Shown: in pieces, positions 1,088-57,063 of the stretch
How the letters are laid out: the number at the start of each line of letters is the position of its first letter
Numbering within the stretch: the stretch's first letter is position 1
NCBI RefSeq assembly: GCF_003018255.1
Contig: NZ_CP027440.1
Length of the DNA stretch: 64,000 nt
Strand: one strand, 5' to 3'
Origin: Escherichia coli
GTDB lineage: Bacteria > Pseudomonadota > Gammaproteobacteria > Enterobacterales > Enterobacteriaceae
Program-made: the position numbers and the translations under genes
Notes under the pieces: model-generated
The model's database searches: none
Told to the model about the DNA's origin: nothing
What the model saw: the letters and a program-made list of their open reading frames with translations, nothing else

Positions 1088-2761
1088 TCAGGAGAGATAT
1101 TCCGCCACCGGACCAAGCGCCAGGGCAGGGATAAAGGTCAGTGCGCCAACCAGCAACACGGTGCCGATTAACAGGCCAACAAACAGCGGGCCGTGCGTTG
1201 GCAGCGTGCCGGAGCTGGCGGGCTGGCTCTTTTTACTCACCAGCGAACCGGCAATTGCCATCACCGGGATAATTACCCCGAAGCGACCGACAAACATGCA
1301 GAACGCCAGCAAACAGTTCCAGAATGGAGAGTTGGCGCTTAATCCGGCAAAGGCGCTGCCGTTGTTGTTAGCGGCGGATGACACGGCGTACAGCACTTCG
1401 CTAAAACCATGCGGGCCAGGGTTGAGCATGGCGCTACGTCCGGCGTCGGTCATCATTGCCAGCGCCGCGCCCATCAGCGCCAGCGTTGGGGTGACCAGAA
1501 TCGCCAGCGCGGTCAGTTTCATCTCGCGTACGTCGATTTTTTTACCCAGATATTCCGGTGTACGACCAATCATCAGCCCAGCAATAAACACCGCCAGCAG
1601 GACAAACAGCATCATGCCGTAAAGACCAGAACCGACACCGCCGAACACCACTTCACCAATTTGCATCAGCCACATCGGCACCATGCCACCAAGAGCGGTA
1701 AACGAATCATGCATCGCAATCACCGCGCCACAGGAAGCCGCCGTAGTCACGACCGCAAACAGGCTACTGACCAGCACGCCGAAACGACTCTCTTTACCTT
1801 CCATATTGATGCTGCTGTCCGCGCCCAGTGCCAGCAGATGCGGATTACCCTGAACTTCTGCCCACATCACCACGCCTGTGCAGATGATAAAAATCACTGA
1901 CATCGCCCACAGCAACATGCGCCCCTGACGGCGATCGCCCGCCACTTCGCCAAAGGCAAAGCACAGCGCTGTTGGGATCAAGAAGATCGCCAGCATCTGC
2001 ACGAAGTTGGTCAGTGCGGTTGGGTTTTCAAACGGATGCGACGAGTTGGCATTAAAGAAGCCACCGCCGTTAGTGCCGAGCATCTTGATCGCTTCCTGAG
2101 AAGCTACAGGCCCCATGGGTAACAGCTGTTGCGCTCCTTCAACGGTATTCACCGCCTGATAGGGCAGAAAGTTTTGCAGCGCACCTTGTTGAATAAAAAA
2201 CAATGCGATCAACAACGCCACAGGGACTAGCACCCATAACGTGATGCGTAGCAGATCGACCCAGGCATTCCCGAGTGTGCTCATGCTCTGGCGGGTAAAT
2301 GCACGTATGAGGGCAAAAATCACCGCAATCCCGCTGGCGGCAGAAAGAAAGTTTTGCACCGTTAAGCCCGCCATCTGGCTGAAATAGCTCAACGTGGTTT
2401 CACCGCTGTAAGATTGCCAGTTGGTATTTGTGACAAAGCTGACGGCGGTATTCAGCGCCAGATCCCACGACAGTCCTGGCAACTGCTGTGGATTAAGCGG
2501 CAGATAGTGCTGACCGAGCAACATAAAAAACAGCACCGCCAGCCCCAGTATATTCAGGCCAAGAATGGCTGAGAGATACTGCTTCCAGTTCATCTCGCGG
2601 TCAGAGACGCCAAGCGCGCGAAAAAGTACGCGCTCAACGCCCGTCGTACCGGGAAGAGGAATGTCATTAATCAGCCGCGCCAGCCCGCTGCCTAAAGGAC
2701 GCGCCAGCACCATTAACACCAGTAAAAACGTGGCAATCAGTAAGAACCCTTGCGCAGCCAT
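1088..2761 (-). CDS. kdpA: Potassium-transporting ATPase subunit A (557 aa)
   Basis: ORF 1088..2905 contains the KdpA sequence from [24 protein letters not shown]; start ATG at 2759-2761 overlaps the kdpF stop (ATGA). Confidence 0.95.
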
Positions 2762-2850
2762 CAGAACGCCTCCGCATTGATCAGGGCATAAACCAGATAA
2801 CCCAGTAATAAAAACACCAGCAACACGCCGGCTATCACGCCTGCACTCAC
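2761..2850 (-). CDS. kdpF: KdpF, 29-aa membrane peptide of the Kdp complex, GTG start
   Basis: Translation [30 protein letters not shown] read from the C-terminus of ORF 2761..2964; stop overlaps kdpA start. Confidence 0.85.
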
Positions 2851-2923
2851 AGTGCACCTCCAGTGGCCTAAAAGTGATACCGGAAGAGTAGAATTCTGGC
2901 TGCAAAGATTTCGCAAAAATCTG

Positions 2924-2955
2924 CGGGCGGGGTGTAAAAAAAGTATAAAAATGGC
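2924..2955 (-). promoter_or_regulatory. Probable KdpE response-regulator box upstream of kdpF
   Basis: Minus-strand sequence CATTTTTATACTTTTTTTACACCCCGCCCG with TTTATA/TTTACA half-sites, about 75-105 bp upstream of the kdpF start; matches the KdpE operator as I remember it. Confidence 0.55.
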
Positions 2956-3162
2956 AAAAGCCATGATTTAACTAATGTTTAGTATTAATTTAACCTTTGT
3001 GTAACTTAATTACGGTATGAATGTAAATAAACCATCAATAAGCAAAAATAAGTGGTCGGATGAGTAGTAAAATTACACAAAAGGCGGTACTATTTTCATC
3101 AGATAAACAAATTCATTTTTCCGGTGCTATTCACCGGGTAGATACAAAAGGGGGAGAAAAGT

Positions 3163-27618: not shown

Positions 27619-27742
27619 CCGTAGGCCTGAGAAGACGCGCAAGCGTCGCATCAGGCAACCAGTGCCGGATGCGGCGTGAACGCCTTATCCGGCCTACAAG
27701 TCATTACCCGTAGGCCTGATAAGCGCAGCGCATCAGGCGTAA
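27619..27742. repeat. Cluster of REP (BIME-type) palindromic elements between sdhB and sucA
   Basis: Three imperfect palindromes of the GCCTGATGCGACGC / GCCGGATGCGGCGTGAACGCCTTATCCGGCCTAC type in alternating orientation. Confidence 0.8.
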
Positions 27743-32044: not shown

Positions 32045-33211
32045 ATGAACTTACATGAATATCAGGCAAAACAACTTTTTGCCCGCTATGGCTTACCAGC
32101 ACCGGTGGGTTATGCCTGTACTACTCCGCGCGAAGCAGAAGAAGCCGCTTCAAAAATCGGTGCCGGTCCGTGGGTAGTGAAATGTCAGGTTCACGCTGGT
32201 GGCCGCGGTAAAGCGGGCGGTGTGAAAGTGGTAAACAGCAAAGAAGACATCCGTGCTTTTGCAGAAAACTGGCTGGGCAAGCGTCTGGTAACGTATCAAA
32301 CAGATGCCAATGGCCAACCGGTTAACCAGATTCTGGTTGAAGCAGCGACCGATATCGCTAAAGAGCTGTATCTCGGTGCCGTTGTAGACCGTAGTTCACG
32401 TCGCGTGGTCTTTATGGCCTCCACCGAAGGCGGCGTGGAAATCGAAAAAGTGGCGGAAGAAACTCCGCACCTGATCCACAAAGTTGCGCTTGATCCGCTG
32501 ACTGGCCCGATGCCGTATCAGGGACGCGAGCTGGCGTTCAAACTGGGTCTGGAAGGTAAACTGGTTCAGCAGTTCACCAAAATCTTCATGGGCCTGGCGA
32601 CCATTTTCCTGGAGCGCGACCTGGCGCTGATCGAAATCAACCCGCTGGTCATCACCAAACAGGGCGATCTGATTTGCCTCGACGGCAAACTGGGCGCTGA
32701 CGGCAACGCATTGTTCCGCCAGCCTGATCTGCGCGAAATGCGTGACCAGTCGCAGGAAGATCCGCGTGAAGCACAGGCTGCACAGTGGGAACTGAACTAC
32801 GTTGCGCTGGACGGTAACATCGGTTGTATGGTTAACGGCGCAGGCCTGGCGATGGGCACCATGGACATCGTTAAACTGCACGGCGGCGAACCAGCTAACT
32901 TCCTGGACGTTGGCGGCGGCGCAACCAAAGAACGTGTAACCGAAGCGTTCAAAATCATCCTCTCTGACGACAAAGTGAAAGCCGTTCTGGTTAACATCTT
33001 CGGCGGTATCGTTCGTTGCGACCTGATCGCTGACGGTATCATCGGCGCGGTAGCGGAAGTGGGTGTTAACGTACCGGTCGTGGTACGTCTGGAAGGTAAC
33101 AACGCCGAACTCGGCGCGAAGAAACTGGCTGACAGCGGCCTGAATATTATTGCAGCAAAAGGTCTGACGGATGCAGCTCAGCAGGTTGTTGCCGCAGTGG
33201 AGGGGAAATAA
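32045..33211 (+). CDS. sucC: Succinyl-CoA synthetase beta subunit (388 aa)
   Basis: [36 protein letters not shown]... Confidence 0.97.
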
Positions 33212-34080
33212 TGTCCATTTTAATTGATAAAAACACCAAGGTTATCTGCCAGGGCTTTACCGGTAGCCAGGGGACTTTCCACTCAGAACAGGCCATTGCA
33301 TACGGCACTAAAATGGTTGGCGGCGTAACCCCAGGTAAAGGCGGCACCACCCACCTCGGCCTGCCGGTGTTCAACACCGTGCGTGAAGCTGTTGCTGCTA
33401 CTGGCGCTACCGCTTCTGTTATCTACGTACCAGCACCGTTCTGCAAAGACTCCATTCTGGAAGCTATTGATGCAGGCATCAAACTAATTATCACCATCAC
33501 TGAAGGCATCCCGACGCTGGATATGCTGACCGTGAAAGTGAAACTGGATGAAGCAGGCGTTCGTATGATCGGCCCGAACTGCCCAGGCGTTATCACTCCG
33601 GGTGAATGCAAAATCGGTATCCAGCCGGGTCACATTCACAAACCGGGTAAAGTGGGTATCGTTTCCCGTTCCGGTACACTGACCTATGAAGCGGTTAAAC
33701 AGACCACGGATTACGGTTTCGGTCAGTCGACCTGTGTCGGTATCGGCGGTGACCCGATCCCTGGCTCTAACTTTATCGACATCCTCGAAATGTTCGAAAA
33801 AGATCCGCAGACCGAAGCGATCGTGATGATCGGTGAGATCGGCGGTAGCGCTGAAGAAGAAGCGGCTGCGTACATCAAAGAGCACGTTACCAAGCCTGTT
33901 GTGGGTTACATCGCTGGTGTGACTGCGCCGAAAGGCAAACGTATGGGCCACGCGGGTGCGATCATTGCCGGTGGGAAAGGGACTGCGGATGAGAAATTCG
34001 CTGCTCTGGAAGCCGCAGGCGTGAAAACCGTTCGCAGCCTGGCGGATATCGGTGAAGCACTGAAAACTGTTCTGAAATAA
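33211..34080 (+). CDS. sucD: Succinyl-CoA synthetase alpha subunit (289 aa)
   Basis: [45 protein letters not shown]... Confidence 0.97.
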
Positions 34081-34180
34081 ATATCTGTAATAAGAAATAG
34101 CCCTCGCCGCTTCCTTCTACAGGAATGGCGAAGGGCTGTCGGTTTCGACATGGTTGGCCATCATATGATGGCCTTTTTTG
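34081..34180 (+). ncRNA. sdhX: 3-prime-UTR-derived small RNA region of sucD (SdhX/RybD-like) with intrinsic terminator
   Basis: About 100 nt after the sucD stop with two hairpins (AGCCCTCGCC...GGCGAAGGGCT and GGCCATCATATGATGGCC) followed by a T run at 34173-34179; ends not determined. Confidence 0.5.
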
Positions 34181-34183
34181 TGC

Positions 34184-34906
34184 TTATCGCGATGATTTTC
34201 GCTGCGCTATCAGGGTAAATTTATAGTCATCGGTATTAAAAGCGTTGCGGCTATATTCAAACACCCGGCCATCAACTAAATATCCACGCGATACTTTTTC
34301 AAGAATCGGCTTAGTCTGGCTGATATTAAGCAGACGGCTCATTTCTTCGGTTGGCATCAGAGGAATGATTTCCTGTTCGCTACGATCGATAACCATTTTC
34401 TTCACTTCTTCAATAAAGTGATATTTCGAATTTTCCATGACCTGCCAGGTGAGATCCGGGAACAACGCAAGCGGCATCCAGGTTTCTTCCAGCGCCATTG
34501 GCTTTTGCTTGCGATAGCGCACGCGCTTCACATGCCACACACGATCCTGCGCGGTGATTTGTAGCTGTTGCTGAAGAAAATCGTCAGCCGGAATCACTTC
34601 GAATATCAGAACTTCACTGTGTGTATCGACGTGACGGTCCGTCAGTTTTTCATCAAAACTGGTTAACTGAAAAATATCGTAATTGACCCGCTCTTCTTTT
34701 ACGTAAGTCCCGCTGCCCTGAATGCTTTCGAGGATCTGCTGTTCAACTAACTGGCGCAAAGCCTGACGCACCGTAACCCGGCTGACGCCAAACTCTGTTT
34801 GTAGCGCTGATTCAGTGGGTAACGCATCGCCAGGTTTAAGCTCGCCACGCGCAATTTGCTCACGAATGCGATCAGCAATCTGTCGGTATAAGGGTTTCCG
34901 TCCCAT
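34184..34906 (-). CDS. mngR: GntR-family transcriptional regulator of the mannosyl-D-glycerate operon (240 aa)
   Basis: N-terminal GntR HTH (MGRKPLYRQIADRIREQIARGELKPGDALPTESALQTEFGVSRVTVRQAL) plus UTRA-type C-terminal domain. Confidence 0.93.
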   Translation of the reverse strand: MGRKPLYRQIADRIREQIARGELKPGDALPTESALQTEFGVSRVTVRQALRQLVEQQILESIQGSGTYVKEERVNYDIFQLTSFDEKLTDRHVDTHSEVLIFEVIPADDFLQQQLQITAQDRVWHVKRVRYRKQKPMALEETWMPLALFPDLTWQVMENSKYHFIEEVKKMVIDRSEQEIIPLMPTEEMSRLLNISQTKPILEKVSRGYLVDGRVFEYSRNAFNTDDYKFTLIAQRKSSR

Positions 34907-35015
34907 GATTTAGCATCTCATTAATACGAATTTAGCCATTATGCCCGATAAATTCATCCTGTAAATAATACAAATACAATACAAATAATTTCAATCAAGT
35001 GAAATTGATCACATA

Positions 35016-36992
35016 ATGGTATTGTTTTATCGGGCACACTGGCGCGACTATAAAAACGATCAAGTGAGGATCATGATGAACCTGACGACTCTGACCCACC
35101 GCGATGCGTTGTGTCTGAATGCGCGCTTTACCAGCCGTGAAGAGGCCATCCACGCGTTGACTCAACGTCTTGCTGCTCTGGGGAAAATTTCCAGTACTGA
35201 GCAATTTCTGAAAGAAGTGTATCGCCGTGAAAGCCTTGGCCCGACCGCCTTAGGTGAAGGGCTGGCTGTGCCGCATGGCAAAACTGCTGCGGTAAAAGAA
35301 GCGGCGTTTGCGGTCGCCACACTCAGCGAGCCGCTTCAGTGGGAAGGCGTGGATGGCCCGGAAGCGGTTGATTTAGTGGTGTTGCTGGCGATTCCCCCCA
35401 ATGAAGCGGGTACTACGCACATGCAACTGCTGACAGCGCTGACCACGCGCCTGGCGGATGATGAGATACGGGCGCGTATACAGTCGGCGACGACGCCTGA
35501 TGAATTGCTCTCGGCGCTGGATGACAAGGGAGGCACGCAACCCTCAGCTTCTTTTTCCAACGCGCCAACTATCGTCTGCGTAACGGCCTGCCCGGCGGGT
35601 ATTGCTCACACCTATATGGCTGCGGAGTATCTGGAAAAAGCCGGACGCAAACTCGGCGTGAATGTCTACGTTGAAAAGCAAGGTGCTAACGGCATTGAAG
35701 GGCGTTTAACGGCAGAGCAACTCAATAGTGCAACCGCCTGTATTTTTGCGGCTGAAGTCGCCATCAAGGAGAGTGAGCGTTTTAACGGCATTCCCGCGCT
35801 TTCTGTGCCTGTTGCCGAGCCGATTCGCCATGCAGAAGCGTTGATCCAACAAGCGCTTAACCTCAAGCGTAGCGATGAGACGCGTACCGTACAGCAAGAT
35901 ACGCAACCGGTGAAAAGCCTCAAAACGGAGCTAAAACAGGCACTGTTGAGCGGGATCTCTTTTGCAGTGCCGTTGATTGTCGCGGGGGGCACGGTGCTGG
36001 CGGTTGCGGTATTACTGTCGCAAATCTTCGGGCTACAAGATTTGTTTAATGAAGAAAACTCCTGGCTGTGGATGTACCGCAAACTGGGCGGAGGGCTGCT
36101 CGGGATTTTGATGGTACCGGTGCTGGCAGCCTACACCGCCTATTCACTGGCTGATAAACCGGCGTTAGCGCCAGGCTTTGCGGCTGGACTTGCCGCCAAC
36201 ATGATCGGTTCCGGGTTTCTCGGTGCTGTCGTTGGCGGATTGATAGCCGGTTATCTGATGCGCTGGGTGAAAAATCACTTGCGTCTTAGCAGTAAATTCA
36301 ATGGATTCCTGACTTTTTATCTCTACCCGGTGCTCGGTACGTTGGGAGCGGGCAGTCTGATGCTGTTTGTGGTGGGGGAACCTGTCGCCTGGATCAATAA
36401 CTCGCTTACCGCCTGGCTGAACGGTCTGTCAGGAAGTAACGCGCTGTTGCTGGGTGCCATTCTCGGTTTTATGTGTTCCTTTGACCTTGGAGGGCCAGTG
36501 AACAAAGCCGCTTATGCATTCTGCCTGGGCGCAATGGCGAACGGCGTTTACGGCCCGTATGCCATTTTCGCCTCCGTCAAAATGGTTTCGGCATTTACCG
36601 TAACCGCTTCCACGATGCTCGCACCGCGCCTGTTTAAAGAGTTTGAAATTGAGACCGGGAAATCCACCTGGCTGTTAGGGCTGGCAGGTATTACCGAAGG
36701 GGCGATCCCGATGGCGATTGAAGATCCGCTGCGGGTTATTGGTTCGTTTGTGCTGGGCTCTATGGTAACGGGCGCTATCGTCGGCGCGATGAATATCGGC
36801 CTTTCGACACCCGGTGCCGGCATTTTCTCGCTCTTTTTACTTCATGATAATGGCGCGGGCGGTGTTATGGCGGCAATTGGCTGGTTTGGTGCGGCATTGG
36901 TGGGGGCTGCAATCTCGACTGCAATTCTTCTGATCTGGCGGCGTCACGCGGTTAAGCATGGCAACTATCTGACTGATGGCGTAATGCCATAA
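35016..36992 (+). CDS. mngA: PTS 2-O-alpha-mannosyl-D-glycerate-specific EIIABC component (658 aa)
   Basis: EIIA (PTS-type) N-terminal domain, EIIB, and polytopic EIIC domain; divergent from mngR. Confidence 0.9.
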
Positions 36993-39681: not shown

Positions 39682-39712
39682 TCAGGCCATCTTCGGATGG
39701 CCTGAGATTGTT
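39682..39712 (+). terminator. Probable terminator after mngB
   Basis: Hairpin TCAGGCCATC-TTCG-GATGGCCTGA followed by a T-rich stretch. Confidence 0.55.
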
Positions 39713-54301: not shown

Positions 54302-54847
<546 letters not shown>

Positions 54848-54856
54848 GAGAATTGC

Positions 54857-55648
54857 ATGAGCAGTAACTTCAGACATCAACTATTGAGTCTGTCGTTACT
54901 GGTTGGTATAGCGGCCCCCTGGGCCGCTTTTGCTCAGGCACCAATCAGTAGTGTCGGCTCAGGCTCGGTCGAAGACCGCGTCACTCAACTTGAGCGTATT
55001 TCAAATGCTCACAGCCAGCTTTTAACCCAACTCCAGCAACAACTCTCTGATAATCAATCCGATATTGATTCCCTGCGCGGTCAGATTCAGGAAAATCAGT
55101 ATCAACTGAATCAGGTCGTGGAGCGGCAAAAGCAGATCCTGTTGCAGATCGATAGCCTCAGCAGCGGTGGTGCAGCGGCGCAATCAACCAGCGGTGATCA
55201 AAGCGGTGCGGCGGCATCAACGACGCCGACAGCTGATGCTGGTACTGCGAATGCTGGCGCGCCGGTGAAAAGCGGCGATGCAAACACGGATTACAATGCA
55301 GCAATTGCGCTGGTGCAGGATAAATCCCGCCAGGATGAAGCAATAGTGGCATTTCAGAATTTCATCAAAAATTACCCTGATTCAACTTACCTGCCAAACG
55401 CCAATTATTGGCTGGGTCAGTTAAACTACAACAAGGGTAAAAAAGATGATGCGGCGTATTATTTTGCTTCGGTAGTGAAAAACTATCCGAAGTCACCGAA
55501 GGCTGCAGATGCGATGTTTAAAGTCGGCGTCATCATGCAGGACAAAGGTGACACCGCAAAAGCGAAAGCCGTATACCAGCAGGTTATCAGTAAATACCCT
55601 GGTACTGATGGCGCTAAACAGGCGCAAAAACGTCTGAACGCGATGTAA
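54857..55648 (+). CDS. cpoB: Cell division coordinator CpoB (YbgF), TPR protein (263 aa)
   Basis: MSSNFRHQLLSLSLLVGIAAPWAAFAQ signal peptide, coiled coil, TPR repeats. Confidence 0.95.
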   Translation: MSSNFRHQLLSLSLLVGIAAPWAAFAQAPISSVGSGSVEDRVTQLERISNAHSQLLTQLQQQLSDNQSDIDSLRGQIQENQYQLNQVVERQKQILLQIDSLSSGGAAAQSTSGDQSGAAASTTPTADAGTANAGAPVKSGDANTDYNAAIALVQDKSRQDEAIVAFQNFIKNYPDSTYLPNANYWLGQLNYNKGKKDDAAYYFASVVKNYPKSPKAADAMFKVGVIMQDKGDTAKAKAVYQQVISKYPGTDGAKQAQKRLNAM

Positions 55649-55812: not shown

Positions 55813-55888
55813 GGGTCGTTAGCTCAGTTGGTAGAGCAGTTGACTTTTAATCAATTGGTCGCAGGTTCGAATCCTGCACGACCCACCA
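55813..55888 (+). tRNA. lysT: tRNA-Lys (anticodon UUU)
   Basis: GGGTCGTTAGCTCAGTTGGTAGAGCAGTTGACTTTTAATCAATTGGTCGCAGGTTCGAATCCTGCACGACCCACCA. Confidence 0.95.
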
Positions 55889-56023
55889 ATCGCTAAGGTG
55901 GAAGCGGTAGTAAAACGTGAAGGATAACGTTGCGTCAGCAACGGCCCGAAGGGCGAGACGAAGTCGAGTCATCCTGCACGACCCACCACTAACCTAGTTA
56001 GTTGTAGTATCCAGCGTAGTATC

Positions 56024-56099
56024 GGGTGATTAGCTCAGCTGGGAGAGCACCTCCCTTACAAGGAGGGGGTCGGCGGTTCGATCCCGTCATCACCCACCA
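56024..56099 (+). tRNA. valT: tRNA-Val (anticodon UAC)
   Basis: GGGTGATTAGCTCAGCTGGGAGAGCACCTCCCTTACAAGGAGGGGGTCGGCGGTTCGATCCCGTCATCACCCACCA. Confidence 0.95.
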
Positions 56100-56101
56100 C
56101 C

Positions 56102-56177
56102 GGGTCGTTAGCTCAGTTGGTAGAGCAGTTGACTTTTAATCAATTGGTCGCAGGTTCGAATCCTGCACGACCCACCA
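56102..56177 (+). tRNA. lysW: tRNA-Lys (UUU)
   Basis: Identical to the lysT sequence. Confidence 0.95.
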
Positions 56178-56228
56178 CTAATTACGGTGGGTTCGGTGGA
56201 AGTAGTTTGTAGTATTCAGCGCAGTATC

Positions 56229-56304
56229 GGGTGATTAGCTCAGCTGGGAGAGCACCTCCCTTACAAGGAGGGGGTCGGCGGTTCGATCCCGTCATCACCC
56301 ACCA
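56229..56304 (+). tRNA. valZ: tRNA-Val (UAC)
   Basis: Identical to the valT sequence. Confidence 0.95.
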
Positions 56305-56307
56305 CTC

Positions 56308-56383
56308 GGGTCGTTAGCTCAGTTGGTAGAGCAGTTGACTTTTAATCAATTGGTCGCAGGTTCGAATCCTGCACGACCCACCA
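56308..56383 (+). tRNA. lysY: tRNA-Lys (UUU)
   Basis: Identical to the lysT sequence. Confidence 0.95.
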
Positions 56384-56529
56384 GTTTTAACATCAAACTC
56401 AGATGTTAAGCGTGAAGGATAACGTTGCGCCAGCAACGGCCCGTAGGGCGAGCGAAGCGAGTCATCCTGCACGACCCACCAATTTTAAAGATTGGTTCCG
56501 AGTAGAAATCTTTCAGGTAACACCCGTAT

Positions 56530-56605
56530 GGGTCGTTAGCTCAGTTGGTAGAGCAGTTGACTTTTAATCAATTGGTCGCAGGTTCGAATCCTGCACGACC
56601 CACCA
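56530..56605 (+). tRNA. lysZ: tRNA-Lys (UUU)
   Basis: Identical to the lysT sequence. Confidence 0.95.
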
Positions 56606-56638
56606 TCCTGAATGATTAAAGCAGCATAATCCCGCAAG

Positions 56639-56714
56639 GGGTCGTTAGCTCAGTTGGTAGAGCAGTTGACTTTTAATCAATTGGTCGCAGGTTCGAATCC
56701 TGCACGACCCACCA
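56639..56714 (+). tRNA. lysQ: tRNA-Lys (UUU)
   Basis: Identical to the lysT sequence. Confidence 0.95.
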
Positions 56715-57063
56715 ATGTAAAAAAGCGCCCTAAAGGCGCTTTTTTGCTATCTGCGATACTCAAAGATTCGAACCTGCAGCAGGTTCGAGTTGAGCGCAGC
56801 GAAACAACGGAGCCGCTCGCGGCGACGGCCCGTAGGGCGAGCGAAGCGAGTTATCCTGCACGACCCACCAATGTAAAAAAGCGCCCTAAAGGCGCTTTTT
56901 TGCTATCTGCGATACTCAAAGATTCGAACCTGCAGCAGGTTCGAGTTGAGCGCAGCGAAATAACGGAGCCGCTCGCGGCGACGGCCCGTAGGGCGAGCGA
57001 AGCGAGTCATCCTGCACGACCCACCAATGTAAAAAAGCGCCCTAAAGGCGCTTTTTTGCTATT
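56715..57063 (+). repeat. Tandem direct repeat, 156-bp period, about 2.2 copies; each unit carries a terminator hairpin and a tRNA-Lys 3-prime-end fragment
   Basis: Units 56715-56870 and 56871-57026 differ at about 3 positions; a partial third copy (terminator part) follows at 57027-57063; each unit ends ...ATCCTGCACGACCCACCA. Confidence 0.9.
56719..56747 (+). terminator. Rho-independent terminator after lysQ (repeated at about 56875 and 57031)
   Basis: AAAAAAGCGCCC-TAAA-GGCGCTTTTTTG hairpin with T run. Confidence 0.85.

Follow-up and report, generated by a model that had tools for sequence, protein, structure and literature searches.

The 101 nt that follow sucD in the window (the whole 64-kb stretch of Escherichia coli DNA that was analysed) almost certainly constitute, as judged from their sequence, the gene sdhX, which would encode the 3'UTR-derived, Hfq-dependent sRNA SdhX (formerly RybD) of the sdhCDAB-sucABCD mRNA. 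The presence of sdhX at this locus is already known, and in this strain the gene is found in its normal place and with a normal one-way intrinsic terminator. The features of the locus are collected in Table 1.

Table 1. Features of the sucD–sdhX–mngR locus, in window coordinates.
Feature	Position	Strand	Basis
sucD CDS, succinyl-CoA synthetase alpha subunit, 289 aa, last gene of the sdhCDAB-sucABCD operon; TAA stop at 34078-34080	33211..34080	+	ORF and annotation
sdhX, full-length form as in K-12 (b4764), 101 nt	34081..34181	+	99/101 identity to NC_000913.3 765050..765150, fold, Term-seq
5' hairpin of long SdhX, long and imperfect, Escherichia lineage-specific, -21.9 kcal/mol	34100..34136	+	folding
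Short stem	34138-34149	+	sequence
Putative SdhX2-like 38-nt core (seed and terminator)	34142..34179	+	PMC6393394; custom covariance model match 34141-34181
Seed UUCGACAUGGU, core CGACAU at 34146-34151	34144..34154	+	PMC6393394 seed sequence; invariant TxGACAT
Rho-independent terminator hairpin GGCCAUC-AUAU-GAUGGCC, DNA GGCCATCATATGATGGCC, perfect 18-nt palindrome here	34156..34173	+	terminator scan, covariation, d-score +30.7
U6 tail, expected Hfq-binding 3' end; transcript ends on the last U	34174..34179	+	terminator scan, Term-seq
mngR CDS, GntR/UTRA repressor, convergent, 240 aa; stop codon at 34184-34186	34184..34906	-	ORF; GntR and UTRA domains

Identity of the sdhX locus

The name of sucD is confirmed by the annotation in 5425 E. 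coli genomes, and the list of open reading frames places sucB and sucC upstream of it. The sdhX sequence starts at 34081, directly abutting the end of sucD at 34080, and lies on the strand of the sdh-suc operon, whose mRNA of ~10 kb is the parent transcript of SdhX (PMC6393394). The same layout is given by the curated record of K-12 MG1655 (NC_000913.3), in which sucD ends at 765049, the ncRNA sdhX (b4764) occupies 765050..765150 directly after it, and mngR (765153..765875) follows with 2 nt in between. An 81-aa ORF on the opposite strand (33906..34151), which overlaps both sucD and sdhX, was discarded as a mechanical reading frame.

The original prediction had assigned the structured ~100 nt after sucD to SdhX from their position, and this assignment is borne out by the identity to the curated sdhX, the intact seed, the unique match of a custom covariance model and the pairing of the seed with ackA. 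Alignment of 34081-34181 to the annotated K-12 gene shows two mismatches in 101 nt, at 34115 (T in the window, C in K-12) and at 34163 (A in the window, G in K-12). The end coordinate first proposed, 34180, is 1 nt short of the annotated end at 34181 and 1 nt beyond the 3' end mapped by Term-seq at 34179. The sdhX region was found in 5424 of 5426 complete E. coli genomes, and a wider segment of the window (33900-34400) shares 100% identity with E. coli DETEC-S792 and 95-99% with almost every other genome. The 101-nt RNA is strongly structured, with a folding energy of -42.8 kcal/mol compared with -24.9 +/- 3.6 for dinucleotide shuffles (z = -5.0), none of the 200 shuffles being as good.

Seed, targets and allele of this strain

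The sRNA SdhX (RybD) depends on Hfq and is released from the operon mRNA by RNase E in both Salmonella and E. coli; its seed UUCGACAUGGU lies right in front of the terminator stem, and a minimal form of 38 nt is also known (Miyakoshi et al. 2019, PMC6393394); a companion study on E. coli SdhX by the Gottesman group is ref. 19 of that paper. The conserved target is ackA, to which E. coli adds fdoG, recognised via G62, and katG, recognised via C34. G62, which pairs with fdoG, lies at the site where SdhX2 is processed, and the katG pairing is marked by the mutant C34G (PMC6393394). In the window the seed is intact and immediately 5' of the terminator stem, and both bases, numbered from the end of the sucD CDS, are present (G62 at 34142 and C34 at 34114). 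The calculated duplex between the seed and K-12 ackA comprises 10 bp at -2..+8 with an energy of -16.7 kcal/mol, compared with -9.7 +/- 2.2 for shuffles, 0.6% of which are as good.

With respect to K-12 SdhX, the locus after sucD and before the convergent mngR, the seed, the terminator, the U-tail, the predicted ackA pairing, G62 and C34 are all the same, and the differences are limited to two single bases, C35U (34115) and G83A (34163). The U at nucleotide 35, which adjoins the katG-pairing C34, is rare (3 of 5409 E. coli genomes); located in the katG-pairing loop, C35U could weaken the E. coli-specific interaction with katG. The A at 34163, carried by 178 of 5375 genomes, converts a G-U pair of the stem into A-U and thus renders the terminator stem a perfect palindrome.

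A disrupted copy of the gene was observed in E. coli FDAARGOS_944 (NZ_CP065613.1; positions 2226-3010 of the retrieved locus L002), where an IS1 has inserted into the SdhX seed, duplicating a 9-bp target (TCGACATGG), and parts the seed-plus-terminator core from the sdh-suc operon. The overlapping BLAST places of this genome had suggested an integration (att) site at the 3' end of sdhX, which was ruled out, the event being a simple IS1 insertion with its 9-bp duplication.

SdhX resembles other Hfq-binding sRNAs derived from mRNA 3' ends. In CpxQ, SroC, NarS and MicL the seed is likewise placed just upstream of the intrinsic terminator of the parent mRNA and the U-tail is the Hfq handle; CpxQ, SroC and NarS also share with SdhX the release by RNase E. 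These four sRNAs differ from SdhX in locus, seed and targets, and SdhX in turn differs from them by an unusually poor conservation outside a core of ~40 nt.

Covariance models and conservation

Failure to match an SdhX model had been named beforehand as the observation that would count against the assignment. No Rfam 15 family was found at sdhX when the whole window was searched at the gathering threshold, and a search of 33900-34400 at E <= 10 returned only a chance RyhB match on the terminator (E = 7.5). However, K-12's own sdhX gave nothing significant either, only chance isrD and snoR9 matches, and since the bona fide gene is equally unmatched the silence of Rfam is uninformative and this test is void. 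Rfam 15 seems to hold no SdhX model. In PGAP-annotated E. coli genomes no feature was found beneath the sdhX sequence.

A custom covariance model, on the contrary, does match. It was made from 21 non-Escherichia homologues of the sucD 3'UTR, with no Escherichia sequence included, and its sole match in the 64-kb window is at 34141-34181 on the plus strand (54 bits, E = 6.6e-9), the others having E >= 0.16. Among these, weak matches on both strands (E ~0.2) fall on a palindromic hairpin, GGCCAUCUUCGGAUGGCC, at 39684-39703 just after mngB, which resembles the SdhX terminator stem. Elsewhere in the window Rfam recognised a CpoB/ybgF thermometer at 54748-54886 (+, 142 bits), a naRNA4/REP-type element at 27624-27694 (-, 82 bits) and, at 55813-57026 (+), seven clustered tRNAs with RtT repeats between them.

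The retrieval of homologous loci on the basis of SucD gave 80 loci, and an SdhX-like core, formed by the seed, a GGCC-based hairpin and T6-8, follows sucD in 22 Enterobacterales loci. The carriers include Escherichia albertii, Citrobacter, Enterobacter, Kluyvera, Pluralibacter, Phytobacter, Mangrovibacter, Superficieibacter, Cedecea, Serratia, Dickeya, Rahnella, Hafnia and two unclassified MAGs; in Pantoea, Erwinia, Photorhabdus and all the non-Enterobacterales among the 80 loci only plain terminators, with no SdhX-like core, were found. In an alignment of 24 Enterobacterales sequences (13 named genera and the two unclassified MAGs) the motif TxGACAT is invariant, and the 7 bp of the terminator stem are paired in 100% of cells, with compensatory changes in 4 of the 7 pairs. 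The covariation score of the stem is 0.427, compared with 0.231 in shuffles, none of 500 of which reaches it, and with at most 0.127 in slid registers. Directly behind the T run (columns 37-44, T run included), 18 of the 24 aligned sequences read 'AT', independently of the gene that follows, and mngR-bearing E. coli reads 'GT'.

These data bear on whether the region could be an ordinary operon 3'UTR with its terminator, devoid of any trans-acting role in this strain and similar to SdhX merely in position. Such a reading would agree with the lack of an Rfam match and with the poor conservation between genera of the 5' two thirds of the region, but we consider it highly improbable. It is effectively refuted by the identity, at 99 of 101 positions, to the experimentally characterised E. 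coli SdhX; furthermore, the seed is invariant across the aligned genera and MAGs while its flanks and the interior of the stem vary, and the complementarity to ackA is intact.

The terminator on the sdh-suc strand

The GC-rich hairpin placed between the stops of sucD and mngR, with 7 pairs (5 of them GC), a loop of 4 and the run TTTTTT, is the only strong terminator-like site found by a consensus scan of 33500-35200. Published Term-seq data (Adams et al. 2021) map a strong 3' end on the plus strand to K-12 765148 in all three growth conditions, with scores of ~19,800 and ~34,700 in two rows. The conversion from K-12 to the window is a constant offset of 730,969, by which this end falls on 34179, the last T of the run. 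The hairpin was also evaluated by a d'Aubenton-Carafa-type score, calculated with modern energy parameters and with a zero threshold that is approximate, which reached +30.7 in the forward direction and -53 in the reverse.

Adams et al. 2021 also report Rho-dependent termination on the plus strand in a region at K-12 765604 (window 34635), where mngR is read in antisense. The position of this region inside mngR implies that some transcription passes the SdhX terminator and is halted by Rho within mngR. A terminator-like hairpin, TGACGGTCCGTCA followed by GTTTTTC, is located antisense inside mngR at 34632-34654 (+) and coincides with the Rho-dependent region.

Convergent genes beyond the T run

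The stop codon of mngR had been predicted to sit 4 nt beyond the T run, and so it does: the run ends at 34179 and the four bases GTGC (34180-34183) separate it from the stop. In E. coli a variable gene region begins sharply at this end of the SdhX T run (34179-34186). The block mngR-mngAB follows the run in ~3881 of 5425 genomes (~72%), and in ~1544 genomes the homology stops at window 34179-34186; the same boundary is seen in the retrieved loci L003 (20276-20300) and L004 (12275-12300). In the genomes without mngR, the place before cydA is taken by an RtcB-family gene and hut genes, by a LysR gene together with a methylaspartate-pathway block, or by both; O157 has the LysR gene and the methylaspartate-pathway block up to cydA. 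The ancestral order seems to be sucD, sdhX, a gap of ~700 nt and a co-directional cydA.

Convergent genes close to the T run are found in several lineages. In E. coli 1532WA an RtcB-family gene, after which the hut genes come, has a TAA stop that takes in the final two T of the run. The gap between the T run and the convergent stop is -2 nt for mngR in Kluyvera and Enterobacter, -2 nt for an unknown 288-aa protein in Superficieibacter (of which a remnant exists in E. albertii) and +11 nt for a 5'-nucleotidase in Serratia plymuthica. Stops overlapping the run or near it (<= 11 nt) were located at L004 12279-12281, L012 3435, L014 3290, L015 1937, L016 3428 and L021 3437. The geometry of mngR relative to the T run thus recurs across lineages. 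In seven convergent arrangements the plus-strand terminator scores from +29 to +49, and exhaustive scoring revealed no reverse-strand hairpin with a U-tail scoring above zero within 260 nt of the convergent stop.

Direction of termination

The original prediction went further and held that a single hairpin probably ends both transcripts. There is no support for this in the sense of a canonical bidirectional terminator: the A-tract is absent, the score in the reverse direction is strongly negative, and the only Term-seq end listed is on the plus strand. We read the hairpin as a canonical terminator that works in one direction, for the sdh-suc/SdhX strand, and that mngR merely abuts. An upstream A-rich tract has been called essential to bidirectional intrinsic terminators, in which both strands then read a hairpin followed by a U-tract (PMC12207403). 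The SdhX terminator has in common with this type a single palindromic GC-rich hairpin between convergent genes and a second stop within a few nucleotides, but it differs in the absence of the upstream A-tract and hence of a U-tract on the mngR strand. A T-tract is present downstream, and the sequence upstream of the hairpin is TTCGACATGGTT, that is, the seed. The invariant seed fills the position of the A-tract, and consequently the tail on the mngR strand is not a U-tract but AACCAUGU (DNA AACCATGT), with 2 U, or 2 T in the DNA, in 8.

It is nevertheless worth considering whether the hairpin at 34156-34173 ends both the sdh-suc/SdhX and the convergent mngR transcripts, which we regard as unlikely. 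The stop of mngR lies 4 nt from the T run and there is no other strong hairpin between the genes; the palindrome is perfect and forms equally on both strands (-11.5 kcal/mol); unrelated convergent genes end -2 to +11 nt from the same T run in other lineages; and those neighbours have no canonical terminator of their own within 260 nt. In addition, the published collision model needs no U-tract (bioRxiv 10.1101/2022.10.23.513370). Against this stand the missing A-tract, described as essential (PMC12207403), and its replacement by an invariant seed, which leaves a reverse tail with 2 U in 8 and a score of -53 as opposed to +31 forward. All seven convergent arrangements are alike in this respect, with reverse scores between -27 and -53 in those for which the hairpin was scored. 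Furthermore, conservation of the terminator is just as high where the co-directional cydA follows ~700 nt away, so that the terminator did not evolve for a convergent partner.

The complete Term-seq tables of Adams et al. 2021 list no minus-strand 3' end in K-12 764600-765199, perhaps simply owing to weak expression of mngR. The consensus scan detected no minus-strand terminator in 33500-35200, the SMRT-Cappable-seq and TERMITe supplements contain nothing for mngR, sucD or sdhX, and none of the papers searched names sdhX or sucD together with mngR.

Ju et al. in 2019 reportedly described, by SEnd-seq, collision-type bidirectional terminators that are Rho-independent and have overlapping convergent 3' ends at a hairpin. 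Hairpins between convergent E. coli genes have been presented as pause sites at which collisions between RNA polymerases terminate transcription without a U-tract (bioRxiv 10.1101/2022.10.23.513370). The SdhX hairpin shares with this type its palindromic, GC-rich character and its placement between convergent genes, and it may hinder mngR transcription as a pause site or collision barrier.

A second route for mngR, to which we give slightly less than an even chance, is that its transcripts pass the reverse side of the SdhX terminator and end either after the hairpin 34136-34100, with its tail UAUUUCUUAUU, or by Rho in the untranslated antisense of sucD. This hairpin is the best reverse-strand candidate past the mngR stop, with -22.4 kcal/mol, 6 U in the first 8 bases of the tail and a borderline d-score of -7.2, and Rho is active nearby, as the plus-strand region at K-12 765604 indicates. 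The score is still below zero, however, and the hairpin and its tail are identical in E. coli lineages without mngR, which argues that they are not tailored to mngR; moreover, the mngR-bearing Kluyvera and Enterobacter have no equivalent hairpin, and no minus-strand 3' end has been reported. If such read-through is true, the 3'UTR of mngR would be at least 90 nt long and fully complementary to SdhX.

Transcription of mngR most likely runs on into sdhX in antisense. A bolder proposal is that horizontally acquired convergent genes repeatedly dock at the SdhX terminator and that their transcripts run antisense over the seed, so that expression of the neighbour could titrate or destroy SdhX by a perfect duplex, or SdhX/sdh-suc transcription could end that of the neighbour by collision; we hold this to be quite improbable.

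Proposed mechanism and implications

We propose that SdhX, encoded directly after sucD, is made in this strain as follows. Transcription of the operon would stop at the intrinsic terminator formed by the hairpin and the U6 tail, as published Term-seq data show for K-12, and RNase E would then free the long form of ~100 nt and the core of ~38 nt (34142-34179), by homology with what is described for Salmonella and E. coli. The single-stranded seed would pair with the start codon and the second codon of ackA, and E. coli SdhX would also repress fdoG, through G62, and, by way of the variable hairpin further upstream around C34, katG. Expression of the TCA-cycle operon would thereby be coupled to acetate metabolism. 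The mngR transcripts, for their part, would end in a non-canonical manner, by pausing at the hairpin or polymerase collision, after the reverse hairpin 34136-34100 with UAUUUCUUAUU, or by Rho.

SdhX ties the expression of the TCA-cycle operon to acetate, formate and catalase genes; this has already been characterised, and its confirmation here adds no new biology. Both Rfam and PGAP miss SdhX, and the lack of an Rfam match is therefore not to be taken as absence of the sRNA. If the reading of the terminator as a docking point with antisense transcripts were true, it would represent an undescribed cis-antisense layer on a known sRNA, and if convergent transcripts do cross the SdhX seed antisense, this would be a small, testable addition to the regulation of SdhX.
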